A program made the translations under genes and the position numbers. Below are positions 1 through 30,337 of a stretch of DNA of 64,000 bases, in pieces. Numbering within the stretch: the first letter of the stretch is position 1; every line of letters begins with the position of its first letter. The notes under the pieces are model-generated. The model was not told the DNA's origin. It worked only from the letters and a program-made list of their open reading frames with translations, and ran no database searches. The stretch is taken from NCBI RefSeq assembly GCF_030013595.1, contig NZ_CP122768.1; one strand, given 5' to 3'. The DNA comes from Escherichia coli (GTDB lineage Bacteria; Pseudomonadota; Gammaproteobacteria; Enterobacterales; Enterobacteriaceae).

Positions 1-1520
1 CTATTTTGTGTGTTATCGTCAAAACTCAACACACCTCGTTTGTTTTCGGTGTTGAAAAGAGTAATGATGCGCCCATCAATAACACCAACAGAAGGTTTAA
101 TTAACGTGGCTTCCGGTGTATCGTGAACAGTCAGATTAACATAAACACTTTTACCAAATTCAACAATAACGTTATCAGTGTAACGCTGATATTTCACATA
201 AATGTCATAGTTATCACCGGATGTATTGACGGCAAATACATCAAAATCTTTGACGGTATTTCGACGATATGCAACTACGTTAAGTCCTTTAGGTCTATCG
301 TTACCACTACGGAGAAGAATTTCTACTACATCAACTTGGTCATATGCCGTAACGTTGTAACCATTACCACCATGAATACGGAAAAACACACTACGCCCGT
401 TTTGTGGAATTGTTGCGGTTGCCAATTTGAAATATGCAGATACGTTTTCGCTAGAATTGGGAACAGACATAACGACGTTTTTAACAAACATCTTATCAAC
501 TTCGGCTTTGGTGTATGCACCAATCTCGCCAGGAGTCGGCTTATCACCTTCGTGATACATCTTATAGCTAAAGTTCTTCTGTCCTTCTCTATCAAAACCA
601 TAGGTTTCAACACGAGATCCACCAGACGCATAACGGAAAGTAAATCCGCGACCGTGAGCTTTACCGGCAGAGTGAGGAACGTTAAGAGTTAGATCCATGA
701 GTCCATCTTGACCATTGGTACGGAAAGCACCAAAGTAGTTAAGATCTCTCGCTGTCTGGTCTTCCAAATAGTTAGCTGTTTTGGTTAACAGATACCCGCC
801 ATGCTTAGTGTTGGTATTCTTCTTGATGTAAAGAGCATCGTTACTACCTTCAATACCATCAATTCGACGGTTAGCGGCTGCGATCGCTGAATCAGTATCA
901 GTTTTGTTTTTGTCAACCTTTGCGTTAATAGCGGTATGGTTGCTATTCACCGTCCCTGTAAGGTTACTGATTTTAGTATCAACATCTTTCTTGTTGTCGG
1001 AAACGACCTTTTCAATCGCTGTTTTGTTAGCTGCAACCGTGCTAGTTAAGCTAGAAATTTTGTTATCTGCATCGGTTTTATTTGCAGTAACAGTTTTAGT
1101 CAAGTTGCTAACGTTGGTGTTAGTGGTATTAACTTTGTTGTTAATCGCGGTGTTATTGTCATTAACCGTCGTGGTTAAAGCTGCGATTTTATTGTCCGCA
1201 TCTCGTTTATTATTTGCTACAGTAGTTTCTATAGCTGATTTGTTAGATGCAACTGTCCCCGTAAGGTTATTGATCTTAGTATCAGCATCGGTTTTATTTG
1301 CCGCGATAGTCGCATCAGTAGTTTTCTTGTTATTGTCTACTTTTGTGTTTAAAGCATTATGACTTTCAGGAGAAACACTTACTTGAACTACTGCGTTATT
1401 TTTATCTTTGGTATAAATTACATGGTCTGCCATCTGAATAGCGATTTCACCGACCTGTAATTGTTCCGGCGTTGGCTTTTTACCAGCCGTCTGTGTGCGT
1501 TTAAATTGGATCGACTGCAT
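1..1520 (-). CDS. Tail fibre / tailspike-like protein, partial (3' end beyond window start); >500 aa in window
   Basis: Hand translation of minus strand from ATG at ~1518-1520 (SD GAGGTG upstream) is open to position 1: MQSIQFKRTQTAGKKPTPEQLQVGEIAIQ..., then ~29-aa periodic repeats (..NKTDADTKI.NLTGTV..), then Gly/aromatic-rich distal region. Not in ORF track because no stop in window. Confidence 0.6.
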   Translation of the reverse strand, partial: MQSIQFKRTQTAGKKPTPEQLQVGEIAIQMADHVIYTKDKNNAVVQVSVSPESHNALNTKVDNNKKTTDATIAANKTDADTKINNLTGTVASNKSAIETTVANNKRDADNKIAALTTTVNDNNTAINNKVNTTNTNVSNLTKTVTANKTDADNKISSLTSTVAANKTAIEKVVSDNKKDVDTKISNLTGTVNSNHTAINAKVDKNKTDTDSAIAAANRRIDGIEGSNDALYIKKNTNTKHGGYLLTKTANYLEDQTARDLNYFGAFRTNGQDGLMDLTLNVPHSAGKAHGRGFTFRYASGGSRVETYGFDREGQKNFSYKMYHEGDKPTPGEIGAYTKAEVDKMFVKNVVMSVPNSSENVSAYFKLATATIPQNGRSVFFRIHGGNGYNVTAYDQVDVVEILLRSGNDRPKGLNVVAYRRNTVKDFDVFAVNTSGDNYDIYVKYQRYTDNVIVEFGKSVYVNLTVHDTPEATLIKPSVGVIDGRIITLFNTENKRGVLSFDDNTQN

Positions 1521-2440: not shown

Positions 2441-2911
2441 TTAAAAACGCGCTAGATAAGAAAATTTAAGGCTAAGTGTCCCAACGATACCCCCATCACT
2501 AGAATCATCGTCATAATCGGTATTAGAAGCTACTGGAGTGATATCTGAAATTGAGAAGCCCAAATCTTTAAAACGTGGGTTATCCGGCTGAATCTGGATT
2601 ATCTGGCAAATACCCTCATGAATTTTGGTTTCATGAATCTGAGAATACAATTGCATTTCGATAACGCATTCAGCTTGCATTGCATTACCGCCACGGACCC
2701 TATTGTAAGTCTCATTCATTCCGGTGATCCAACAAACCACGTCATCACTAAAGCCTTGCTGAGTTTGTTCTACGTTTAAAGCCAGACCTAAATCTTGTTC
2801 GATAATATCCTGCAAGGCGCGTTTGATTTTCAGTCTAGGCATATTATTAACGGTAGCGAGCATGTGTACCCCCTGCCAGAGTGATAAAGCAATCAGTTGT
2901 ATTGTCACCAT
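2441..2911 (-). CDS. Hypothetical virion morphogenesis/neck protein (156 aa as tracked; more likely ~140 aa from ATG at 2863)
   Basis: ORF track; internal ATG at 2861-2863 has a GGGGG SD, first ATG has none; sits in the head-tail module. Confidence 0.4.
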   Translation of the reverse strand: MVTIQLIALSLWQGVHMLATVNNMPRLKIKRALQDIIEQDLGLALNVEQTQQGFSDDVVCWITGMNETYNRVRGGNAMQAECVIEMQLYSQIHETKIHEGICQIIQIQPDNPRFKDLGFSISDITPVASNTDYDDDSSDGGIVGTLSLKFSYLARF

Positions 2912-7427: not shown

Positions 7428-9332
7428 TTAGAACGATGTTACCCAGCTACGGCCTCTATTTGGGCGTCTGACGATGTTTTGACGTTGTGGTCGTGTGATT
7501 GGCTTAGTTTCTTCGATTTGCTCGTCAGATTGCGATTTAGGAGCTTCTACAGGTTCTTCTGGTTCACGGTTCAAACTATCTTTGATGGCTTCGAGTTTTT
7601 CCCATGACATTTTATTGAGTACATGACGAGAAGCAGCATAGGAATAAGCCAGGCAGTCCAACGCTTCGTTTCGTGTTTGTCCAACTTTTACCCAACGTGT
7701 GGTATTACCCTGCCGTTTCAACTGTTCAGAAAGCAATTGCTCGCAATAGTCATCAGGAACGTCACCAATCTGGAAGACAGTGTGAGGATCGCCATCTCTC
7801 AAGTTCCGGTTAATCATTTCACGGATCATCGTTTTAAGGTTGTTTACGCCCAGAATTTTAAGGGTAAAACCACCCGTTCTTGTGTCTTTTACCGGAAGGA
7901 TTGGTGCATCAACATTGCTTGCGCCTTTAATGGCGGTTAGATTTTGCCACCGACTACAGAATCGATAGATCACGTTTGTAGCTCGTCCGTTCGATGAGTC
8001 CACGAAAGCAGATAACATCGGGATTCGTTCACCGGATCGGGTATAGAATTTAGCTTTCAGGAAGTTGTAAAGCTGGTTATATGCTGGTGATTCGTGGCGT
8101 TCGCAGTTCACATCATAGAATGATCGGTGATCAACTACGCATAGCCCTTTACGAGAAATACCCAGCAAGGTAGATTCCAGACGGTCTTTTTGCTGGTCAA
8201 CTCCACCTACCAGAGCCAGTACATCATCAGGAATATTGTCTAGGCTAATATCAGTTTTCAGCGTTTCTAATTCGTCGGCTGTGCGGTCTTCGTTAAGATC
8301 ATCGAAGGTTTCACCGAGGACTGTATTGTAGAACGTTGCCAGGGACATATTCGCGTAGCTATCAGCAAAGTCCACCACACACGCACGGATAGAACTAAAC
8401 GGAGACATAAGGCGGTTAGCATGAAAACCGATTACTTCCGCGTTTGGTTCGGTGGCGACCCATTCTCCCTGTCCAACAGCACGTAGGCGATCACCCTCGG
8501 TCCAATCGGTTTCACATTCAGGGCAACGGTAAACGGCTGTATCTGGGTTGGGTAATGATTTACCGTTAATCGTATGCCAATCGAAATGTACGTTACTCCA
8601 TTCCATTACGTGCTTGTGTCCGCAATGCTGGCAAACGACATGATATTTTCTCTTATCCGAGAGTTCCCATTGTTGGTTAATCGCCCCATCACGAGCGGTT
8701 GGAGTGGAAGCAATTACGATCCTTGCATCTTCCCCGAAAGTGGTTGCGCGTTGTTCCGCTAGTTGGATCGGGTTCCCTTCGTCTGACTCATCAGCCGCAT
8801 CAACTTCATCAAGAATAATCAAAGGGAGTGTTTTACCGCGAAGATGTGACGGACTATTCAACGACATGAAATACATAAACGATCCGTTACGAAGCTGAAT
8901 AATCGATGAGTTGTTAACGGCATTGCGATCTGATTTGTCGGTGATCATCGCCTTTAATTCTGGTGTTGCCTCTAATACTGGCTTCACCTTACCAGCGATC
9001 CAAGAATTTAGTTCTCTAACGTTACTTTGCAACACCCCAATATTAGTAGGGTTACTCGCGATCCGATGGAAGATAATTCCGTTAAGAATCATGGTCTTAC
9101 CCAACTGTGCCGAACATTTAAACACAATTTTTCTACGGTCTTCGGTGATCGCGTCCATCATTCCACGTTGGAAGGGATGCAATTTAATTAGCGATCCGGC
9201 TTTAACACCATCGGTTGCAACTACATTAGCCTCTACCCATTCGCTAGGTTTCATCGTTTTAGGTGGGCGAATTGCCGCAGAGATATTTTTAAGAATCTTT
9301 TTTAATTTTGCCTTGTTCGAAATCAGTTTCAT
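7428..9332 (-). CDS. Terminase large subunit, lambda GpA family, 634 aa
   Basis: ORF track; recalled lambda gpA similarity: ..HPFQRGMMDAI.. near N-terminus, Walker-A-like KCSAQLGKT, C-terminal RNEALDCLAYSYAA matching gpA RNEALDCFVYALAA. Confidence 0.85.
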   Translation of the reverse strand: MKLISNKAKLKKILKNISAAIRPPKTMKPSEWVEANVVATDGVKAGSLIKLHPFQRGMMDAITEDRRKIVFKCSAQLGKTMILNGIIFHRIASNPTNIGVLQSNVRELNSWIAGKVKPVLEATPELKAMITDKSDRNAVNNSSIIQLRNGSFMYFMSLNSPSHLRGKTLPLIILDEVDAADESDEGNPIQLAEQRATTFGEDARIVIASTPTARDGAINQQWELSDKRKYHVVCQHCGHKHVMEWSNVHFDWHTINGKSLPNPDTAVYRCPECETDWTEGDRLRAVGQGEWVATEPNAEVIGFHANRLMSPFSSIRACVVDFADSYANMSLATFYNTVLGETFDDLNEDRTADELETLKTDISLDNIPDDVLALVGGVDQQKDRLESTLLGISRKGLCVVDHRSFYDVNCERHESPAYNQLYNFLKAKFYTRSGERIPMLSAFVDSSNGRATNVIYRFCSRWQNLTAIKGASNVDAPILPVKDTRTGGFTLKILGVNNLKTMIREMINRNLRDGDPHTVFQIGDVPDDYCEQLLSEQLKRQGNTTRWVKVGQTRNEALDCLAYSYAASRHVLNKMSWEKLEAIKDSLNREPEEPVEAPKSQSDEQIEETKPITRPQRQNIVRRPNRGRSWVTSF

Positions 9333-9423
9333 GTAATTACCCTCATTACGAAATATGAAGGTATTTATTAAATTGTTGATATTTTGATAAATATGGGTAT
9401 TAAGGCAGAGTTCTTTATGTCGG

Positions 9424-9453
9424 TTGACGATGGAGAACTTTTTCCGATAAAAT
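9424..9453 (+). promoter_or_regulatory. Candidate sigma70 promoter for the 77-aa gene
   Basis: TTGACG, ~17 bp spacer, ATAAAA/TAAAAT about 45 bp upstream of the start codon. Confidence 0.4.
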
Positions 9454-9498
9454 GTAAGTCCTCTAAATAAAGGTGAACATTCACTTTAATTTGGAGAA

Positions 9499-9732
9499 AT
9501 GACTATGACTACTAAAGCTACTCGCGGTCGCCCTGCCCGTTATACTCGTGAACAGATGGCTGATATTGCCTACGCTTACTATACAGCGGATCGCGGGAAG
9601 GAAGCGAAAGAACAGATTCTTAGTGAACATGGGATTTCAGTAGCCCAATTCTATAAGAATATGAAGAAGTTAGACATTAAATTCTATGTTCAGATCGATG
9701 ACGGTCAGATCGTAGAAGCAACAGGTTTTTGA
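9499..9732 (+). CDS. Small putative DNA-binding protein, 77 aa (paralog of 13446..13628)
   Basis: ORF track; N-terminal RGRPARYTRE motif shared with the second small protein (ARPVKFTRE); own promoter and terminator. Confidence 0.45.
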   Translation: MTMTTKATRGRPARYTREQMADIAYAYYTADRGKEAKEQILSEHGISVAQFYKNMKKLDIKFYVQIDDGQIVEATGF

Positions 9733-9740
9733 TTCTCTTT

Positions 9741-9764
9741 GCCACTCTTCGGAGTGGCTTTTTT
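9741..9764 (+). terminator. Rho-independent terminator of the 77-aa gene
   Basis: GCCACTCTTCGGAGTGGC followed by TTTTTT. Confidence 0.6.
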
Positions 9765-9792
9765 GTATCTAAGTTATTGATTTTCTCGAACT

Positions 9793-9835
9793 TCACAATT
9801 TGTGGGAGTCGGGAAACATCCACAATTTGTGGGAG
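9793..9835. repeat. Two direct copies of CACAATTTGTGGGAGT (27-bp period), each with an 11-bp palindromic core CACAA-T-TTGTG
   Basis: Read directly; lies between two convergent terminators. Confidence 0.6.
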
Positions 9836-9844
9836 TTGGATAGT

Positions 9845-9872
9845 AAAAAGCCCCACCATTACGGCAGGGCTT
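9845..9872 (-). terminator. Rho-independent terminator of the 183-aa gene
   Basis: Minus-sense AGCCCTGCCGTAATGGTGGGGCT followed by TTTTT. Confidence 0.55.
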
Positions 9873-9876
9873 CTAA

Positions 9877-10428
9877 TCAGATTCCGAAGATGTCACATAG
9901 GTCGGCTGTGTGGCGTTCTTGTTTTGAATAGTAAATCCGTTCAGCTTCATATAACGTGATAGAATCATCATTAACGACGGTTTCAAACTCCCCTTCTATT
10001 ACCCTTTCTGTGTGCGCTTTACTGCGTAATTCGGCCTCTTCCATGCGATATAAGCCAATACAGATACTACCATATACACCATATTTTTTCTCGTCGAGAT
10101 GGCGACGACCTTTGCGTTGTTCGAACGGAAGATCGTAAGCGGTTATCTTTTTGCGGCGAACTCGATCATATCCACTCTCTTTGGCATCAATCATCATACT
10201 AATCAACATCCCACATTTAACAAGGGATTCAAGGCACTGACGAATAGAATTAGTTCTTGATTGTTTTAATTCTGGGTTAGGATCGTAATATGGATTATCT
10301 ATCCATGATTCATGAATAAGGAAATGTACGTCATCAGCCGTTAAAGGCCAACCACCAACACTTTCAACATCGGTCTTAGTACAATCAAACAGATCCAGAA
10401 TGAATTTCTTTTTGTGCGTCATTTTCAT
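9877..10428 (-). CDS. Hypothetical protein, 183 aa
   Basis: ORF track; last gene of a four-gene minus-strand operon; no family recognised. Confidence 0.45.
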   Translation of the reverse strand: MKMTHKKKFILDLFDCTKTDVESVGGWPLTADDVHFLIHESWIDNPYYDPNPELKQSRTNSIRQCLESLVKCGMLISMMIDAKESGYDRVRRKKITAYDLPFEQRKGRRHLDEKKYGVYGSICIGLYRMEEAELRSKAHTERVIEGEFETVVNDDSITLYEAERIYYSKQERHTADLCDIFGI

Positions 10429-10523
10429 AATGTTCTATCCTCAAAATACTTAAAAAGTACCATGCCGATTTTCGCGGCATGGTCAAAAAATCACCATACA
10501 CCCAATGGGCGTTTGGTTAAAAA

Positions 10524-11363
10524 TTAGATACCAAAGACAGCAAGTGATCCGGCGTTCTTACGAATCAATGCGGCGGTATTATTAACGATTGCACGAGCAT
10601 TGTTAGGCTGCGGTAATTTCAAAGTTGCTATCGTCTCTTCCTCAATCAAGCCCAATTCAACCAGCACTGGTAAACAGTCAGTTGTGAACTCAAGCTGACC
10701 ATGTGCTGATTGTCGGGCATACATGTAAGCAGGAGGAAGAACATCATAGCCACAAGGCTTACCAGAAGCATCCAGACGGCGCTCAATGTGTTTAGCCTCA
10801 CACAATCCCTTAAGAATACGTTGTACCTTCGTAGAGCCTCGTTTTTCGCCCAATAAGCGGGTTAAGCTGTGCCCGTCAATGGCACGGCGAACATGAAGAT
10901 CAATTAATTGTTCTTTTTCTTCCGCTAAAGTCAGAGCCTTACGAATCCAATCAACTTCGGTCATCTTGCTTGCGTCTGGGAAAGCGTTATTCTTTAATTC
11001 TTCATTTTCTTTCTTCAAACGCTGCCATTCATCAACCAGCATTGCGGTATAAACCGGATCGGTCTGTGCGATAACAATGTAGCTATCACGTTCAGTCAGA
11101 AGATAAACTTCAATTGGTTTGCCTTTACGGCCTAAACGGTCAGTTTTTGACCAAAACGCCACTGGCGGTTTGGTTACAATTTGAGCTTCAACCAGACGAT
11201 CAACCGTTCTCATAATATCGGTGTGACGGTTTTCACGCCCCATTAGTTCAGCAATACGCCAGGTAGAAATTGATAATTCTTTCTCTACAGAGTCATTTGC
11301 AGCAGTCAGGTCAACAGAAGAAGCAGTTTTAACAGCAGTATTCATAGTAGTAACAGTATTCAT
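10524..11363 (-). CDS. Rha-family phage regulatory protein (antirepressor-like), 279 aa
   Basis: ORF track; N-terminal ..STWRIAELMGRENRHTDIMRTVDRL.. resembles the Rha-domain pattern (recalled); C-terminal domain unrecognised. Confidence 0.5.
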   Translation of the reverse strand: MNTVTTMNTAVKTASSVDLTAANDSVEKELSISTWRIAELMGRENRHTDIMRTVDRLVEAQIVTKPPVAFWSKTDRLGRKGKPIEVYLLTERDSYIVIAQTDPVYTAMLVDEWQRLKKENEELKNNAFPDASKMTEVDWIRKALTLAEEKEQLIDLHVRRAIDGHSLTRLLGEKRGSTKVQRILKGLCEAKHIERRLDASGKPCGYDVLPPAYMYARQSAHGQLEFTTDCLPVLVELGLIEEETIATLKLPQPNNARAIVNNTAALIRKNAGSLAVFGI

Positions 11364-11451
11364 AGTAGTAATTCCCCTTTCGGTTTAGTGATATTGATCC
11401 TCCTAGTTCCGGCATCACCACCGGAACATTTTTATTTATGATAGAAATTTA

Positions 11452-11784
11452 TTACCAATCGATTTCTACTTGGTCTTCTTCATAATAAGGAATCGCATAT
11501 TCATAACGCCAATTTTCGATGATTTCACGTTCTTCATTAGTAAGAAGGTGATTGTTAACTGGAGTCGCATTGTGATTACCAGCTTCGAATTGCTCGCGAA
11601 CTTCCAGCATTGCATGAATACCAGTTAAGGACATCAGATCAAACGGAACATGCATACTACGGGAGATTGTTTCACGGGATACGCCCCAATCATTTTCTAC
11701 ATGGCTAGGGGTTACAGAAACGGTTTTGCCGGAGATTTTAACAGTCCAGTCATACAGGGATTTAGTGATGGTAAATTCTTTCAT
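11452..11784 (-). CDS. Hypothetical protein, 110 aa
   Basis: ORF track; directly downstream of a consensus promoter. Confidence 0.4.
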   Translation of the reverse strand: MKEFTITKSLYDWTVKISGKTVSVTPSHVENDWGVSRETISRSMHVPFDLMSLTGIHAMLEVREQFEAGNHNATPVNNHLLTNEEREIIENWRYEYAIPYYEEDQVEIDW

Positions 11785-11825
11785 GTTACATCCTCTTTAC
11801 AAATCTAGGTCAAATAGGTTCAAAG

Positions 11826-11883
11826 TTGTCAAGTGCGATAATCATAAAAAAGTTTGAAGATATTGTCAAATACCACTTGACAA
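11826..11883 (-). promoter_or_regulatory. Consensus sigma70 promoter (TTGACA-17-TATGAT, minus strand) bracketed by a 10-bp inverted repeat TTGTCAAGTG / CACTTGACAA
   Basis: -35 at plus 11864-11869, -10 at plus 11841-11846; inverted-repeat arms at 11826-11835 and 11874-11883. Confidence 0.5.
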
Positions 11884-11905
11884 GACACCAAAGGGTTGAC
11901 CTAAC

Positions 11906-12094
11906 TTACAGCATATCTAAGCCTTCATCGTAACCGTAGAAGCCATTCTGAGAAGAGAAGCAGATTGGTGCGTAGTCGTCGTCATCTTCGTCTTGTTCAT
12001 CTTGTTCTGGGGCTTCCTGAGCGGTTTCTTTGCCGTAGTTAAACATGGCTTCATCCAGTTCATAGTGGAAATCCTCTAAAAGAAAGTGAATCAA
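11906..12094 (-). CDS. Small strongly acidic protein (62 aa from TTG; 46 aa from internal ATG); frame uncertain
   Basis: ORF track (TTG start); acidic run EAPEQDEQDEDDDDY; an alternative overlapping frame has the better SD. Confidence 0.25.
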   Translation of the reverse strand: MIHFLLEDFHYELDEAMFNYGKETAQEAPEQDEQDEDDDDYAPICFSSQNGFYGYDEGLDML

Positions 12095-12700
12095 TCTAAT
12101 ATTATTTATAAAGAGAAAATTCTTGTTATTATGAAAGGAGTGATCTGGTAGAGTCCAAAACTGGTCTGTACTTGAAAGGTGATTGGATTCAGTCGGGCAA
12201 AGCCCTCCTTCATGTTTTGATTAAATCATCATCAAAACGAAGAAGTATCTTTAGAATATAAGATCTTTCTTTTGGAGAAATAATAATCAGGAAGCAATTT
12301 GGCAACCGAAGGTTGCAATCCCGAAGGGATAACCAATACCTTTCTAGAAAGTGATTGTTACTCACTTCGTTCGTTTACTAGAATCAGTTATCATCTGGTA
12401 TTAAATCCCTTTCTAAGAAAATCCTTTCAAAAGTGATTCTCGATGCCACGCAGTGGCGTCGCAGACGTTTGGGAGTGAGCGAAGCGAGCGAGCAAACTAG
12501 TTAATTCCTTCTAAGACCATCTAGTATCATCTAGTTTAAATTAGTTGTTACTAGAAGCAATTGGTTGGCGCTTCGCGCAGTCGGGCTAAAGCCCTCCTAA
12601 TTATCTTTTTGGTTATTTGTTGTTTTTAGTTTTACACATGAGCGTAGCGAATGTGTTATATAATATCTATGCACGCCCAATCCCCCGCTTTTTCCCCTCA
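12095..12700. other. ~600 bp hairpin-dense non-coding region (candidate structured RNA or DNA-level origin/packaging signals)
   Basis: No ORF; many short-loop hairpins (GCAACC-GAA-GGTTGC, ATCCC-GAA-GGGAT, GCCAC-GCA-GTGGC, GCGC-TTC-GCGC); CTAG-rich; ~20-bp direct repeats CAGTCGGGC(T)AAAGCCCTCCT at ~12190-12209 and ~12578-12598. Confidence 0.5.
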
Positions 12701-12743
12701 CTAAGTTAATGTTTTATAAAGAGTTTTTCTCACCAATCCTTTT

Positions 12744-12931
12744 CGGGGGCAAATTTCAGGGGCAAAAATTAGATTTTCAGGGGCAAAAATAGTGGGTTTC
12801 AGGGGCAAAAATGAGGGGCAAAATCACTGTTTCCCAGAATTTCAGGGGCAAAAATAGTGGGTTTCAGGGGCAAAAATGGGATGTGGAATCTAGGGGATTT
12901 TGGTTCAGGGGCAAAATTCAGGGGCAATTTT
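12744..12931 (+). repeat. Iteron array: 9 copies of (TTCA)GGGGCAAAAAT, including an exact 38-bp duplication
   Basis: Read directly; copies at ~12746, 12759, 12780, 12802, 12815, 12845, 12867, 12908, 12921; 38-mer TTCAGGGGCAAAAATAGTGGGTTTCAGGGGCAAAAATG at 12777 and 12841. Confidence 0.85.
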
Positions 12932-12968
12932 CATAGTGTAGGGCTAGTGTAGGTTTGAAAATCCTTTG

Positions 12969-13025
12969 TTGACACTGTGTAGGATCGGTGGTATACTTGA
13001 AAATTCGAGATAAATATGTTATAAT
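12969..13025 (+). promoter_or_regulatory. Tandem near-consensus sigma70 promoters next to the iterons
   Basis: P1 TTGACA (12969-12974), 17 bp, TATACT (12992-12997); P2 TTGAAA (12997-13002), 17 bp, TGtTATAAT (13017-13025). Confidence 0.55.
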
Positions 13026-13171
13026 ATTTGTATTGAAAGTGAAAATTTACCGATTTTCCTTCCTATTGTTATCACCGTGTTAAATTGTTATATGTCTGTG
13101 AAGATTTGGATCTGAGAGAAAATCTTGTAACAAATCTTTACAATTCATAGCTCAATTAATGCTCACCGCTT

Positions 13172-13310
13172 TAGCAAAAAGTGCTATGCCTTTTTCTAAA
13201 TTGATTGAATATACATCAATTTGGTTAAATCGTGTTCTTCGCTTTAGCAATTCGTGCTGTGGTTTAACACATTTAACACGTCTGATAACATCTGAATAAC
13301 ATTTTAACAT
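13172..13310 (+). promoter_or_regulatory. Operator-like palindromes and phased TAACAY repeats upstream of the 60-aa gene
   Basis: TAGCAaaaagTGCTA (13172-13186) and TAGCAattcgTGCTg (13245-13259); five TAACAC/TAACAT copies at ~10-11 bp spacing in 13264-13310. Confidence 0.45.
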
Positions 13311-13445
13311 ATCTCTGTTATAAATACATATATAAGAGATAAATGTGAGGGGTTGAAAAATAAAATACAATCCCATATAAATAATAGTGAGCGGTTAACG
13401 CTCTTTTTTAAGAAATCATTAATCCACATTGTAGGAGGATTCGAG

Positions 13446-13628
13446 ATGGCACGACCTGTTAAGTTCACTCGCGAAATCATCTTAGAAATGGCTAAACGCT
13501 ACTTTGAGTTAACGCCGGGTGTGAGAATTGAAGAGTGGTTTAAAAATGAGGGCATCGATAAATCAACCTTTCATAAACTGCTAAAACGATATGACATTAA
13601 AGTGAAGATTGAAGCTACCGTTTGGTAA
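13446..13628 (+). CDS. Small putative DNA-binding protein, 60 aa (paralog of 9499..9732)
   Basis: ATG with AGGAGGA SD inside tracked ORF 13353..13628 (which begins at TTG); MARPVKFTRE motif. Confidence 0.5.
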   Translation: MARPVKFTREIILEMAKRYFELTPGVRIEEWFKNEGIDKSTFHKLLKRYDIKVKIEATVW

Positions 13629-13742
13629 TCAACTTTGACTGAGAATTATATGATGGCTTTAAAAAAGAAAAAGCCTCCTTTGCTGCAACAAGGGAGGCTT
13701 GAAATGAACAATTAAAACTAACTTTCCATAGGAGTATTTATA

Positions 13743-14684
13743 ATGTTATTTTCCGCTAACTTTTTCACTAACGAAGTAACCAACGCTAAAGCAGTTATCA
13801 AATTTGGCACCGAAGCAAACAAGAAGATTCAGCCGAAAGTTGTTGCTCATGTTTCCTTTGCGCAGCAGAAATCCGCTTTCGCTGGCTTTAAAGCACATCG
13901 TGAAGCACTGATCGCGGCTGGCTTTGGTGTTGACGGTAAACTGCCTAACGGCATTCGTAAAGCAATCGACCGCGTTAAACCAGTTAAAGACGTTGCAGTA
14001 GACCACATCGTTACTTTTACCGTTAAGAACTCTTCTGAACTGTTCCACCTGGTTATTGCTGGTGATACTGCTATCGTTTCCGCTCCTAACATGGATTTTC
14101 AGGATACCGCTGATTGCCAGATCACCTTCGGTCGTCGTAAAGAAGTTACCGGAAAAGCTAAACTGAACTTCACTAAATCCGGCAATCCTTACTTTGCTGT
14201 ATTCTTTAACAGCCACGCTACCGAAAAAGAAGTTGTAGAACTGGTTGCTTATGAAGGTGAAGAGAAAGAACGTATTGAATCTTGCGAAGCATTTCTGGAA
14301 CTGGAAGCACAGGTGAATGCTGTTTCTCCGGTTGTTGAAGATCGCTTTGCTGCACTGGAAGCACAGATCGCAGAACTGAAAGCTGCACTGGAAGAAAAAG
14401 ACCAGATTATCGAAGCACAGAAAGCTGAGATTGAAGAACTGAAAGCTAAAGAAGTTGCTCCGGTGGCAGTAGTTGAAAACGCGGCTGATGAGGCCGCAAA
14501 TGATGAAGTAGAAGTGAAAATCGATGTGATGCGTGATCCGATGGCTGCACTGCAATTACTTCGTTCTTTTAAGGGCAAATCTCATTTTTCTAGTGATGTA
14601 GAAGATGAGGAAGAAGAACAGAAACGCAATGCTGCAATGCTTCATGATGAAATGTACGGTACTAACTTTTCTTACTGCCAATAA
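13743..14684 (+). CDS. Hypothetical protein, 313 aa: unrecognised N-terminal domain, coiled-coil, acidic C-terminal tail
   Basis: ORF track; AGGAG SD; heptad-like ALEAQIAELKAALEEKDQIIEAQKAEIEELKAKE; no NTPase or nuclease motif seen. Confidence 0.5.
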   Translation: MLFSANFFTNEVTNAKAVIKFGTEANKKIQPKVVAHVSFAQQKSAFAGFKAHREALIAAGFGVDGKLPNGIRKAIDRVKPVKDVAVDHIVTFTVKNSSELFHLVIAGDTAIVSAPNMDFQDTADCQITFGRRKEVTGKAKLNFTKSGNPYFAVFFNSHATEKEVVELVAYEGEEKERIESCEAFLELEAQVNAVSPVVEDRFAALEAQIAELKAALEEKDQIIEAQKAEIEELKAKEVAPVAVVENAADEAANDEVEVKIDVMRDPMAALQLLRSFKGKSHFSSDVEDEEEEQKRNAAMLHDEMYGTNFSYCQ

Positions 14685-14707
14685 AAAAAGGGACTCCGAA
14701 GAGTCCC
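14684..14707. terminator. Terminator hairpin (A-run/hairpin; works for minus-sense transcripts, possibly bidirectional)
   Basis: AAAAAA then GGGACTCCGAAGAGTCCC immediately after the 313-aa stop. Confidence 0.5.
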
Positions 14708-14780
14708 TAGTAAGTTTAGGTTAGGTTTGCACAACAAAGATGAGGTTATAATGAATATAATGCTACATTATTCTTTAAAG

Positions 14781-14811
14781 CCAGAAAAATAACCGCCCCC
14801 TTCGGGGCGGG
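14781..14811 (-). terminator. Second minus-sense terminator hairpin
   Basis: CCGCCCCCTTCGGGGCGG with T-rich tract on the minus sense; ~100 bp from the previous hairpin. Confidence 0.4.
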
Positions 14812-14968
14812 AGGATTAATACTCAATCTATACTTGTTATGTTTTTATGTTGTATAGTCACTGACTATGAAAACACTGTACTGAATGTGTTTTATGGCTT
14901 TTAATCGGGAACTCTCTTTCGAAAATTCCCTGTTAAAACCACATAAGGAGAAAAGGCAGATTACAATA

Positions 14969-15253
14969 TTATTTAGTCTGTTTGAAAACGAACGTTAAAA
15001 ATTCGATTAAGCAATATACCCAAAGTACGGTCAGCATCAAATGCATAGCAATAGTTGGATGGAAGTTAAAAAGTGTCATACTAACTAGGCCAACAATATA
15101 AGAAATTCCTTCGACAATTAACGCAAGGCTAGCAAATGCAACAAACGCACCTAAGAATAATTCGCCTCGTTCTTTCGGTTCGGTTCCGAGTTTATAAGCA
15201 GAGATAGCAGCCAGAATAGTAATGATGACAGCATAGGTAATAAAAGTAGCCAT
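14969..15253 (-). CDS. Small membrane protein, 94 aa (three predicted TM helices)
   Basis: ORF track; AAGAGGA SD; hydrophobic segments separated by charged loops. Confidence 0.5.
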   Translation of the reverse strand: MATFITYAVIITILAAISAYKLGTEPKERGELFLGAFVAFASLALIVEGISYIVGLVSMTLFNFHPTIAMHLMLTVLWVYCLIEFLTFVFKQTK

Positions 15254-15269
15254 AGTTTTATATCCTCTT

Positions 15270-15298
15270 AAAAGTTAAGCGGGGGATGTTCTCCCCCG
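15270..15298 (-). terminator. Terminator after the terS-like gene
   Basis: Hairpin CGGGGGATGTTCTCCCCCG with T-rich minus-sense tail. Confidence 0.45.
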
Positions 15299-15345
15299 TA
15301 GACGTTGACCATCAACATCTTTCATACATTTATTTATAACGCGTT

Positions 15346-15903
15346 TTAAGACACATCAAATTCATCGTCTTCTTCTGGTTCTTGTTCTTCCGGTTCATCC
15401 ATTAATGGTAATTCTTCTTCCTCGTCTTCTCCCAAATCTGCATTTTCGAACAAGTCCCCTACTTCATTTAAACGACGCTCGATGATCTCCCTTAGCTTAT
15501 TCTTTAATGTTTTCTGGTCATTGGCAGATTCGAGAATTTCTAGGGCATCGATCGTACAAATCTGCAAAATAGTCTGCTTCACTTTCCCGCAATATTCCGC
15601 TAGTTGCTGTTCTACATAACCGACAGGAATCAGGAGGTTCATTTTTTCCTGATTCTCTCGTTCGGCTGCATCTGCCATTGCTCTTTCTCTGCGGAGACGT
15701 TCTTGATCAATCGCTTCTTTGATTGAAGTTTGTTTAAGTGGGTTAATTACGTTCTTTAGCACCCAATCGCAACCTTCCTTTGCCGGAACACGCCTCTTAT
15801 TGGTATTGTAAGGTAGTCCCCTTTCTAACCATCGCTTACCGCCACCATTCAATGTATAGCCATATAAACGGGAAATTTCTGTAAGGGTTAATTCTTCTTT
15901 CAT
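15346..15903 (-). CDS. Nu1-like small terminase subunit candidate (winged-HTH protein with acidic C-terminus), 185 aa
   Basis: ORF track; strong GGAGGA SD; GGGK and W.ERGLP motifs loosely like lambda Nu1 (recalled); first gene inside the element boundary. Confidence 0.4.
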   Translation of the reverse strand: MKEELTLTEISRLYGYTLNGGGKRWLERGLPYNTNKRRVPAKEGCDWVLKNVINPLKQTSIKEAIDQERLRRERAMADAAERENQEKMNLLIPVGYVEQQLAEYCGKVKQTILQICTIDALEILESANDQKTLKNKLREIIERRLNEVGDLFENADLGEDEEEELPLMDEPEEQEPEEDDEFDVS

Positions 15904-16350
15904 TGGTTATCCTCCATTAAATTTGCGTAATTTTATTTATTGGTTTTACGCAAAATCTAAGCGCCTAAATCGCATTCTAACGAAGGGAAAGATCCAGTAA
16001 TGGTAAGGGCTAGGAAGTGGGTTAATAGTCGCGTAGCGACCGCGCTAGGACTGCACTGATCACGTTTTAAAATCTCACACGCACATCAAAAACCGGGGTG
16101 CCGAAAACTCGCTTTATCTGACCCCGATCCAGAACCTAAATCATTTGTCAAGTCTTTCCGATTCAGTAAAGGGGAACATGCATCTAAGCTAGAGAAGCTC
16201 ATAAAGACTAAGTATGAATGCGGTGTTGTTAGTCGGGATGATATGCGAGACGGTTACACTGAAACGCTACCATTTGAAGCATTGCCGGAGATCATCACTA
16301 TCACCAACAAAATGATAAGCGAAAGCATCCTCGTAAGTAATTGATTCCTA

Positions 16351-16394: not shown

Positions 16395-16724
16395 TTATTG
16401 GGGTTTACAACATTTAGGTTTGCCAATTCGTCTGGCTAACTCTTGCTGAGTGATTTCTGACTGTAAAAAAGCATTTAACAGCAATACCTTAGAGGCGACA
16501 CTCAAAGGCACTTCAATAAAGTGATCGTGACTATTTAATGGCGAAGGTAACGGGATAAGCTCGTTATCTTCAAAATAAAAATCAAATGCGGTCAGTAAAG
16601 CATCTTTTGCCGCTTCCATCGCTTCAGCAACTGTTTCGCCCTGGGTCAACGCTTCAGGGATATCCACAAAAGAAACCATATAACCGCCTTCCGGCGCGGG
16701 TGTAAGAGTGACGGGATAACGCAT
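16395..16724 (-). CDS. hicB: HicB antitoxin, C-terminally truncated at the element junction
   Basis: Matches recalled K-12 HicB from MRYPVTLTPAPEGGYMV.. through ..ARRIGKPK, then 5 non-native codons (CCKPQ) and a stop; C-terminal DNA-binding domain missing. Confidence 0.7.
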   Translation of the reverse strand: MRYPVTLTPAPEGGYMVSFVDIPEALTQGETVAEAMEAAKDALLTAFDFYFEDNELIPLPSPLNSHDHFIEVPLSVASKVLLLNAFLQSEITQQELARRIGKPKCCKPQ

Positions 16725-16769
16725 AATTTCGACTGTCTCTCGCATGTCATTAACCTTTTTAATTGGCGA

Positions 16770-29413: not shown

Positions 29414-30337
29414 ATGGAAAAAAATAGTCTGTTTAGTCAGCGCATCCGTTTGCGCCACCTTCATACATTCGTAGCTGTCGCACAACAAGGAACTTTGGGG
29501 CGCGCGGCTGAAACCCTTAATTTGAGTCAACCTGCGCTCTCTAAGACATTGAATGAACTGGAGCAACTGACGGGCGCTCGCTTGTTTGAGCGTGGTCGTC
29601 AGGGGGCGCAACTTACCTTACCCGGCGAACAATTTTTAACGCATGCAGTCAGAGTTCTTGACGCCATCAACACTGCCGGACAGTCGCTTCATCGTAAAGA
29701 AGGTCTTAATAATGATGTCGTCAGGGTTGGTGCACTACCTACTGCGGCACTGGGGATATTACCTTCGGTTATAGGTCAGTTTCATCAGCAACAAAAAGAG
29801 ACGACCTTGCAAGTTGCGACAATGAGTAACCCTATGATTCTGGCGGGTTTGAAAACCGGGGAAATCGATATCGGCATTGGTCGGATGTCAGATCCTGAAC
29901 TGATGACCGGGCTTAATTACGAACTGCTGTTTCTTGAATCGCTGAAGCTGGTTGTCCGCCCTAATCATCCGCTACTTCAGGAGAACGTAACGCTAAGCCG
30001 GGTGCTGGAATGGCCGGTCGTTGTATCACCAGAAGGCACTGCGCCACGCCAGCATTCAGATGCATTAGTGCAGAGCCAGGGATGTAAAATTCCTTCGGGT
30101 TGTATCGAAACGCTGTCTGCTTCGCTATCTCGTCAACTTACGGTTGAATACGATTACGTGTGGTTTGTCCCTTCTGGCGCTGTAAAAGACGACCTGCGTC
30201 AAGCCACGCTGGTGGCCCTGCCTGTTCCTGGACATGGTGCAGGCGAACCGATTGGAATACTGACCCGCGTAGATGCAACGTTCTCTTCTGGTTGCCAGTT
30301 GATGATTAACGCTATTCGAAAATCAATGCCGTTCTGA
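29414..30337 (+). CDS. ydcI: LysR-family transcriptional regulator, 307 aa
   Basis: Start MEKNSLFSQRIRLRHLHTF.. inside tracked ORF 29345..30337; LysR HTH. Confidence 0.75.
   Translation: MEKNSLFSQRIRLRHLHTFVAVAQQGTLGRAAETLNLSQPALSKTLNELEQLTGARLFERGRQGAQLTLPGEQFLTHAVRVLDAINTAGQSLHRKEGLNNDVVRVGALPTAALGILPSVIGQFHQQQKETTLQVATMSNPMILAGLKTGEIDIGIGRMSDPELMTGLNYELLFLESLKLVVRPNHPLLQENVTLSRVLEWPVVVSPEGTAPRQHSDALVQSQGCKIPSGCIETLSASLSRQLTVEYDYVWFVPSGAVKDDLRQATLVALPVPGHGAGEPIGILTRVDATFSSGCQLMINAIRKSMPF

Follow-up and report, generated by a model that had tools for sequence, protein, structure and literature searches.

In lambda-type cos phages, the genes for the small and large terminase subunits are adjacent. 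Elsewhere they can be apart: in P2, the genes for gpM and gpP are separated by the scaffold and capsid genes, and in T7 those for gp18 and gp19 are separated by 18.5/18.7. Arrays of binding sites next to a gene for a DNA-binding protein are also familiar. Lambdoid replication modules combine the N-terminal domain of the O protein with the iterons of ori, iteron plasmid origins are of the RepA/Pi type, and in the immC region of P1 several one-sided C1 operators (Op99) precede coi and c1. Here, we analyze a stretch of 64,000 nucleotides from the Escherichia coli contig NZ_CP122768.1 (assembly GCF_030013595.1), hereafter the window, in which a prophage has its small (terS) and large (terL) terminase genes 6,013 bp apart (9333–15345). 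We propose, with a probability of roughly 0.72, that the block between them is the resident, conserved early/control region of an uncharacterised temperate E. coli phage of about 36 kb, and that this region includes a specificity cassette in which a direct-repeat array is paired with a large protein. This figure covers the general control-region claim only and does not extend to the reading of the cassette as a replication origin, which is weighed separately below. In general terms, a phage early region and a specificity module of repeats and protein are both familiar kinds of system; in this block they are assembled from families that lack annotation.

The prophage resembles a lambda-type cos packaging module in having a large subunit with GpA ATPase and nuclease domains, a portal of the lambda type (Phage_portal_2), and a small subunit that, like lambda Nu1, has about 180 amino acids (aa), an N-terminal segment resembling a winged helix-turn-helix, and a helical, acidic C-terminus. 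It is unlike such a module in that 6 kb with genes on either strand separate terS from terL, each of which belongs to a transcription unit with its own terminator, in that terS adjoins the attachment site (att), and in that the small subunit is too diverged for a Pfam match. P2 and T7 share the non-contiguity of the two genes; however, their gap is short and holds late (structural or lysis) genes, whereas here it corresponds to the whole early/regulatory region.

A conserved backbone between terS and terL

Read from the terS side, the backbone of the block consists of terS, a slot for a membrane protein, the genes for a large protein and a 60-aa helix-turn-helix (HTH) protein (HTH60), the iterons, and about 0.6 kb of non-coding DNA. 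It continues towards terL with a 150-aa gene, a small-gene slot, a Rha-like gene, a further slot, and the gene for a 77-aa HTH protein (HTH77) with a 200-aa gene. The genes and gene remnants of the block, with the terminators at its rightward end, are as follows:

9333–9498, plus strand: remnant of a 200-aa double-HTH gene, with its last codons (...VDDGELFPIKCKSSK) at about 9424–9471
9499–9732, plus strand: HTH77, with a helix-turn-helix of the GRPxxYT type, followed by a terminator at 9741–9758
9877–10428, minus strand: 183-aa ORFan in a variable slot, flanked by terminators at 9845–9872 and 10459–10483
10524–11363, minus strand: Rha/Ant-like regulator of 279 aa, with a variable N-terminal Rha domain and a conserved C-terminal half
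11452–11784, minus strand: 110-aa protein, first gene of the leftward operon, in an alternative-allele slot
11906–12094, minus strand: remnant of 62 codons (3′ part) of a 150–155-aa acidic-tailed gene, with an internal deletion of about 300 bp
13446–13628, plus strand: HTH60 (Pfam HTH_Tnp_1 only at E 0.0038)
13743–14684, plus strand: large protein of 313 aa, with an N-terminal alpha+beta domain (about 1–170), a coiled coil (178–236), an acidic linker and a C-terminal tail
14689–14810: convergent terminators, which close the rightward operon and the unit of terS and the membrane protein
14969–15253, minus strand: 94-aa protein with three hydrophobic segments, in a variable slot, forming a unit with terS

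The open reading frames (ORFs) listed in a preliminary description of the window are thus present, the small membrane protein among them; its 91-aa ORF begins too early, the HTH protein having 60 aa.

In a first comparison with 29 relatives, the same backbone was found in 28, of which five are RefSeq copies and 23 are loci from IMG/VR. The remaining relative, the divergent Logan contig L007, has the same layout, and further IMG/VR loci also possess it; the RefSeq copy ETEC1717 has a deletion in the block. Judged from these comparisons, the backbone is conserved across the lineage, with a mosaic exchange of single slots. Elsewhere in the 36 kb prophage there are only integrase, SF2 (superfamily 2) helicase, lysis and structural genes. 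The block must therefore hold the regulation of the phage, and probably its replication control, because the rest of the 36 kb, helicase apart, could not. This agrees with the regulatory character ascribed to the block from the outset: it has an Ant/Rha-like gene, HTH paralogues, iterons, and promoters and terminators of its own. The latter claim stood in part. Terminator-like sites are enriched in the block (14 vs. 6.6 ± 2.7) and three promoters are near consensus, matching it at 11 of 12 positions, but promoter-like sites as a whole are not enriched (14 vs. 19.6).

The preliminary description had favored a different view, namely that the block is accessory cargo (a moron or a defence or anti-defence island), or else a second immunity region like P22 immI, inserted between terS and terL. 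There is indeed variability in the window, in the form of the 183-aa ORFan, the 94-aa membrane protein and the slot next to att, and an Ant-like protein is present. Further, in a sister clade (TerL 52–55% identical), the genes of the gap are unrelated to those of the window block and include a type I-C retron RT-Toprim (reverse transcriptase–Toprim) protein (PADLOC E 7e-216) and homing endonucleases of the GIY/HNH type (L062:3944-5713 in IMG/VR UViG_3300045988_152555, L060:6498-7103 and L065:8377-8883); hence, the gap can accept cargo. Nevertheless, the backbone is kept in all close relatives and nearly all the regulator-like genes of the phage sit in the block. PADLOC gave no defence match, with no hit better than E 0.0028 among 10 proteins, and PADLOC, NCBIfam and PHROGs yielded no defence or anti-defence assignment for the block proteins. 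A cargo-like appearance is limited to two genes, those of the 183-aa ORFan and the small membrane protein. The likeness to immI (arc-ant) extends to an Ant-like gene placed second in an operon with a strong promoter and, as far as these searches show, no further: the 110-aa protein and the 48–58-aa proteins of relatives match neither an Arc/Mnt-type family nor a solved structure of that kind, no homology to Arc or Mnt was found, and Rfam detected no antisense RNA family such as the sar-like RNA. An Arc/ribbon-helix-helix identity for the 48–58-aa proteins was likewise considered and dropped, as neither families nor solved structures supported it. Cargo or a second immunity region is thus an improbable explanation of the block as a whole. 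As for the question of whether close relatives carry the block as conserved core with known functions, they display the conservation, without the known functions. For annotation, this means that a gap between terminase genes is not automatically cargo, though a sister clade uses the same gap for a retron.

The separation of the terminase genes

Three features delimit this aspect of the locus:

7428–9332, minus strand: terL, GpA-type large terminase of 634 aa, first gene of the head/tail late block
15346–15903, minus strand: terS, small terminase of 185 aa (phrog_57 family), at the att-proximal end of the prophage
15904–16160: conserved region upstream of terS, from a six-locus alignment including the divergent L007

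TerL matches phrog_15 (E 1.9e-142) and is annotated in the RefSeq relatives as "terminase gpA endonuclease subunit"; its counterpart in L007 (83% identical) matches the Pfam families GpA_ATPase and GpA_nuclease (PF05876, PF20454). For the 185-aa protein, the PHROG match is to phrog_57, "terminase small subunit" (E 2.7e-11); a homologue with 73% identity matches it over its full length (E 2e-15). The 185-aa protein has no Pfam family at E ≤ 10, and its similarity to lambda Nu1 is weak and only weakly colinear (BLASTP E 0.014, 19% identity, with a hand-entered Nu1 sequence). A tblastn search of terS against isolated phages and plasmids gave no match.

The distance from the terS stop to the terL start is 6,013 bp, with terminators in between, rather than the approximately 5.4 kb first estimated. 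To place this arrangement, a TerL alignment was used to scan IMG/VR, and the resulting 75 loci were searched with a hidden Markov model (HMM) of the 185-aa family. In the 35 loci with TerL at least 51% identical, terS and terL share a strand and terS is the upstream gene, at a distance of 4,342–8,478 bp with a median of 6,194. In the 10 loci with TerL 39–43% identical, a terS homologue abuts or overlaps terL, also on the same strand; these outgroup homologues score E 1e-13 to 1e-24 with the family HMM and also match phrog_57. The genes upstream in the outgroup phages, which all lie on a single strand, code for an integrase and a fused primase-helicase. Since the separation is fixed where TerL is at least 51% identical and terS abuts terL where identity is about 40%, adjacency is ancestral, and the split is derived and common to two sister clades. 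Thus, both earlier statements, that adjacency is the usual state and that the window departs from it, are borne out, and the group offers a datable case of terminase gene separation in which the outgroup is adjacent and two sister clades are split.

By the same token, because its outgroup homologues abut terL on the same strand, the 185-aa protein is to be taken as TerS, and on homology and gene order its family is evidently a genuine small terminase. The preliminary description had allowed that this protein might instead be a regulator, with the true terS elsewhere. Its lack of a Pfam match, its weak similarity to Nu1 and its position next to att, where recombination directionality factors often sit, would be in keeping with that; against it, terS homologues of all three clades match phrog_57, those of the 10 outgroup loci abut terL on the same strand, and no other terS-like ORF adjoins terL among the ORFs of the window. 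We regard this alternative as close to refuted on these comparative grounds. The region upstream of terS has an inverted repeat, TTGCGTAA...TTACGCAA, at 15923–15953 and a GC-rich palindrome, GTCGCGTAGCGAC, at 16028–16040, the latter being a candidate for an operator or for the cos site. Having palindromes of its own upstream, terS would be expressed as a unit separate from terL.

A repeat/protein cassette of at least three types

The part of the block between the non-coding DNA and the convergent terminators has the order direct-repeat array, one or more promoters, a long type-specific leader, HTH60, and a protein of about 313–340 aa. In the window, the non-coding features of this part and of the DNA beside it are:

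12100–12740: hairpin-rich non-coding region, 93% mean column identity across six loci
12743–12927, plus strand: array of nine type A direct repeats TTCAGGGGCAAAAAT, at spacings of 13, 21, 22, 13, 30, 22, 41 and 13 bp
12934–12957, plus strand: two copies of TAGTGTAGG, which is the repeat of type B, in the interval from the array to the promoters
12969–12997 and 12997–13025, plus strand: two tandem promoters with extended −10 elements (TG present), each matching 11 of 12 consensus positions
13026–13445, plus strand: AT-rich, type-specific leader or origin flank of 420 nt, not alignable between cassette types

The iteron array noticed earlier is real: nine copies of TCAGGGGCAA (at most one mismatch), all on the plus strand, fall within 12743–12927, as against 3.3 ± 1.5 expected in the whole window; none of 100 shuffles gave as many as were observed. 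The array ends 42 bp upstream of the nearest −35 element and overlaps no predicted promoter. The tandem promoters that follow (TTGACA-17-TATACT and TTGAAA-17-TATAAT) read into HTH60 and the 313-aa gene.

We counted the covariation of the cassette parts over 30 loci, which fall into three types by the N-terminus of the large protein and the repeat:

Type A: N-terminus MLFSANFF..., repeat AGGGGCAA, 4–9 copies per locus, 18 loci including the window
Type B: N-terminus MKNSKRITFN..., repeat GTGTAGG, 6–9 copies per locus, 11 loci
Type C: N-terminus MKQNNFSITVY..., repeat CGGGGA, 13 copies, one locus

The type of repeat covaries with the N-terminal domain of the large protein in all 30 loci, and the type A repeat does not occur in any type B or type C locus. 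HTH60, which lies between the repeats and the large gene, does not covary: its alleles are identical or near-identical across all three types, one identical allele being found with both A and B. At the DNA level, two variable segments (12436–13397 and 13743–14680) flank the conserved HTH60 segment. The large proteins have a common architecture, in which some 170 aa of N-domain precede a coiled coil, an acidic linker and a tail; the tails of types A and B are similar (LHDxxYxTNxS). This pattern suggests that recognition of the repeats resides in the N-domain of the large protein. The three types amount to a natural specificity-swap experiment and could supply orthogonal DNA-binding parts.

The 313-aa protein belongs to a very small family. 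From 1.84 billion proteins, an exhaustive search recovered 11 representatives, including one repeat protein that is spurious, a word-indexed search returned only copies about 99% identical in E. coli, and tblastn against plasmids and isolated phages gave no match. In an AlphaFold2 (AF2) model of the full protein from its single sequence (mean predicted local distance difference test score, pLDDT, 45.6) only the coiled coil is usable; its helix, at residues 178–236, has pLDDT 82–88 and agrees with the coiled coil proposed for this protein before. The model of the N-domain is moderately confident (pLDDT 64). In one relative, P0131, the same coiled coil and C-terminal domain follow an N-domain of the ORF6N family (Pfam E 1.8e-20), which, by shared domains, places the 313-aa family among the modular phage regulators. 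It is like the ORF6N, Bro-N, KilA-N and Rha regulators in combining a variable N-terminal domain, a coiled coil and a shuffled C-terminal domain, but unlike them in that its N-domain matches none of theirs in sequence or fold. The 183-aa ORFan and the Rha-like protein have a common C-terminal tail, ...(V/I)FG(I/L). Most of the large cassette proteins in relatives (as in L012, L013 and L014) end in -AA (YAYAA, RKAA, DFAA) or -LVA, which recalls C-terminal tags for degradation or partner binding.

Possible functions of the cassette

Our tentative preference, held at somewhat less than even odds, is that the cassette is a replication origin with its initiator. The repeats are direct, have a 21–22 bp phasing, stand clear of the promoters and lie beside an AT-rich flank (84% AT at 13000–13049). 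Transcriptional control can be explained by the promoter palindromes together with several small HTH proteins. Apart from the cassette, a helicase is all that the phage has, the outgroups having a fused primase-helicase, and in a complete type A prophage a single repeat copy lies outside the array. That copy, a solitary full-length repeat ATTCAGGGGCAAAAAT, is at position 29617 of the prophage of strain ES2 (L001 ~21129), directly downstream of the Rha stop, at a distance of 2.5 kb from the array; it has no counterpart in the window, where the insertion of the 183-aa gene has taken its place. Lambdoid and plasmid iteron origins are like the cassette in their direct repeats of about 21–22 bp by an AT-rich stretch, in the covariation of the N-domain with the repeat, in the acidic linker and separate C-terminal module, and in exchange between related phages. 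They are unlike it in that the repeats of the cassette are upstream of the promoter and not in the gene, in that a small HTH gene is interposed, and in that its proteins resemble neither O nor Rep_3 nor any other initiator in sequence or fold.

The N-domain of the large protein would bind the repeats, and the protein would oligomerise through its coiled coil. On the origin account, the strong promoters would transcribe through the AT-rich flank at the origin, and the C-terminal tail would recruit the SF2 helicase of the phage or host replication proteins. The promoter palindromes would be operators for the small HTH proteins, and these, with the Rha/Ant-like protein, would make the decision between lysis and lysogeny.

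Several observations pull the other way. The cassette proteins match no Rep/initiator family, nor any family in PHROG, NCBIfam and Pfam, the N-domain model matched no known fold, and a DnaA scan found only one relaxed box, at 12630. The covariation, extending over about 1 kb with few independent exchange events, could partly reflect linkage. Replacement by non-homologous alleles in backbones more than 90% identical is also a signature of immunity regions, and the 313-aa family shares modules with an ORF6N protein of the antirepressor type. Finally, with deletions in both its 200-aa and 150-aa genes, the prophage of the window may be defective.

Some of these points bear on an alternative in which the cassette determines immunity: the 313-aa protein would be a master repressor acting on an asymmetric operator array, HTH60 a small co-transcribed modulator, and the Rha/Ant-like protein an antirepressor. 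The at least three non-homologous alleles swapped in near-identical backbones would be expected of such a system, and there is no CI/S24-type repressor anywhere in the 36 kb prophage. An Ant-like gene stands in the divergent operon, domains are shuffled with the ORF6N protein, the near-consensus promoters could keep the operon on in lysogens, and the succession of DNA-binding domain, coiled coil and tail is like that of the Mu repressor. P1 immC similarly has one-sided sites, then a small gene, then a DNA-binding protein of about 300 aa, although the sites of the cassette are concentrated in one array instead of being scattered, and there is no homology to C1 or Coi. However, the repeats overlap no predicted promoter, and with one further copy outside the array a repressor of this kind could control local promoters only; the small HTH proteins and the promoter-overlapping palindromes make better candidates for repressor and operator. 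Moreover, strain BS74R-D has two prophages of the family with identical HTH60 and 313-aa proteins and different Rha, HTH77, terS and terL alleles, a pair that an origin fits more easily than an immunity determinant. As a sample for heteroimmunity, the polylysogens comprise a single A+A and a single A+B strain, which is not enough to settle the matter. We consider an immunity function unlikely, though far from negligible. The array, promoter, small DNA-binding protein and larger protein also mimic type II and III partition loci, in which case the repeats and the HTH60/313-aa pair would serve an extrachromosomal phase as a segregation system with a centromere-like site, after the manner of tubC-tubR-tubZ or parC-parR. 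This is very improbable: the 313-aa protein has no NTPase motif or family match, all copies in E. coli genomes are chromosomal with none on plasmids, and the phage has an integrase.

Returning to the cassette as a whole, it is conceivable, though on balance doubtful, that the 313–340-aa proteins are a new class of sequence-specific DNA-binding proteins with at least three interchangeable specificities, each with its own array, serving as the origin and/or immunity determinant of an undescribed group of temperate E. coli phages. The separation of terS from terL would then be functional, with packaging initiation placed under separate early-type control, and not a neutral rearrangement.

Candidate RNA and protein-binding signals around the cassette

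The 640 bp at 12100–12740 hold short GC hairpins and repeated AAAGTGAT / CTAG motifs, with fold z-scores of −3.3 and −3.5 on the two strands. A structured RNA was considered here and set aside, as the strands are not separated, both folding equally well; Rfam gave no match at E ≤ 1. The type A leader folds more strongly in sense (z −5.5) than in antisense (−3.3), and the type B counterpart behaves likewise (−3.7 vs. −2.1), as could be expected of a leader RNA with a regulatory role but equally of inverted repeats of the origin type. No IHF consensus was found in the array region. LexA boxes were rejected as regulatory sites, their counts equaling chance and none lying at a promoter.

The leftward operon and the terL-proximal genes

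The genes on the terL side of the non-coding DNA include the leftward unit, in which the 110-aa gene is followed by the Rha/Ant-like gene, a terminator and then the 183-aa ORFan. Two further features belong here:

11869–11841, minus strand: sigma-70 promoter TTGACA-17-TATGAT, matching 11 of 12 consensus positions, which drives the 110-aa gene and Rha
9794–9836: two copies of CACAATTTGTGGGAGT, 27 bp apart, each holding the palindrome CACAATTTGTG

The leftward promoter, also found in L013, has its −35 element overlapped by the palindrome TTGTCAA-N7-TTGACAA at 11863–11883. The 110-aa gene is present in 12 of 29 relatives independently of the cassette type, the others having a 48–51-aa gene there, and its product has no family match in PHROGs, NCBIfam and PADLOC. 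The 279-aa protein matches phrog_63, "anti-repressor Ant" (E 7e-15), which upholds its earlier assignment to the Rha family, the Pfam Phage_pRha match being marginal (E 0.0018); its alleles are 39–57% identical across relatives. The 183-aa ORFan is the only clearly moron-like gene of the block. None of the five RefSeq relatives or 23 IMG/VR loci has it, and L007 has only a stretch 39% identical to it. Among 5.8 billion proteins it has only two clusters, and it has no Pfam, PHROG, NCBIfam or PADLOC match.

HTH77 and HTH60 are paralogues (BLASTP E 2e-9, 32% identity), as had been supposed of these two small DNA-binding-like proteins, and HTH77 occurs in the 28 relatives of clade I in which this portion of the block is kept. 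Compared with its relatives by blastn, the window copy lacks about 540 bp beside terL, which in the relatives codes for a plus-strand gene of 197–200 aa; this 200-aa gene is itself an HTH77 paralogue (E 5e-5) and contains further copies of the same module. A promoter-like site (9424–9453) lies within its remnant. The same comparison revealed the internal deletion of about 300 bp in the conserved 150-aa gene, for which relatives have an intact gene of 149–158 aa at the position of 11906–12094, and the extra 183-aa gene. The pair of CACAATTTGTGGGAGT copies looks operator-like. In the 94-aa slot, other relatives have two small membrane ORFs instead.

The prophage and its relatives

The right-hand 16.4 kb of the prophage occupies the window from position 1 to about 16,405, and its end is marked by the following gene:

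16395–16745, minus strand: truncated hicB, at the prophage junction (about 16405–16415), which marks the right end of the prophage

The truncated ORF reads "...RRIGKPK" followed by five foreign codons, so that the C-terminal part of HicB is lost and the toxin gene hicA is intact; beyond hicB, the window continues with hicA, yncJ and rlhA. The gene is annotated in relatives as "hicB incomplete, missing C-terminus". Related prophages were found in 63 of 5,426 complete E. coli genomes, or about 1%, inserted in hicB or ycdX. The latter site is used by sister prophages with a different integrase, and strain BS74R-D has one prophage at each site.

The complete copy in strain ES2 has 36,008 bp. One strand has three small genes and the genes for a large serine recombinase of 559 aa (phrog_95, E 5e-63) and an SF2 helicase of 496 aa (phrog_16, E 8.5e-110); the opposite strand has lysis, tail, head, portal and GpA terminase genes. 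Beyond these lie the block, the 185-aa gene and att. The phage thus combines a portal and terminase of the lambda type with a large serine integrase and a gene in which protease and capsid are fused. No close isolated phage was found: megablast matched only a T-even-like fibre tip (window 1–794), and the best TerL match among isolated phages is 44% identical, in a probably chimeric 141 kb record. A literature search on serine-recombinase prophages integrated in hicB or ycdX found nothing relevant. The relatives therefore document an uncultured temperate phage group whose early region consists almost entirely of unannotated protein families.

The 141 kb record (L009, GenBank PQ671644, "Escherichia phage DCP80") is classed in the Straboviridae and opens with a GpA-type terminase and lambda-like head genes; it looks like a chimeric assembly. 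ARAGORN called a 91-nt tRNA-Gln (anticodon TTG) at window 2586–2676 on the plus strand, in the structural region and overlapping the minus-strand ORF 2441–2911; the call may be a false positive. The slot between terS and att is empty in the window (16157–16333), and in relatives (L003:10234-11001, L013:523-1317 and equivalents) it holds either a gene for an LprI-family lysozyme-inhibitor-like lipoprotein (phrog_14799) or a 101-aa gene; it looks like a moron slot. The tail-fibre tip at window 1–794 is 94% identical in nucleotide sequence to the gp37-type distal long tail fibre of the T-even phage ELT4 and 77–83% identical to those of many Tequatrovirus-like phages, a likeness that suggests a recent exchange of receptor-binding tips between a temperate phage with a lambda-like head and virulent T-even phages.

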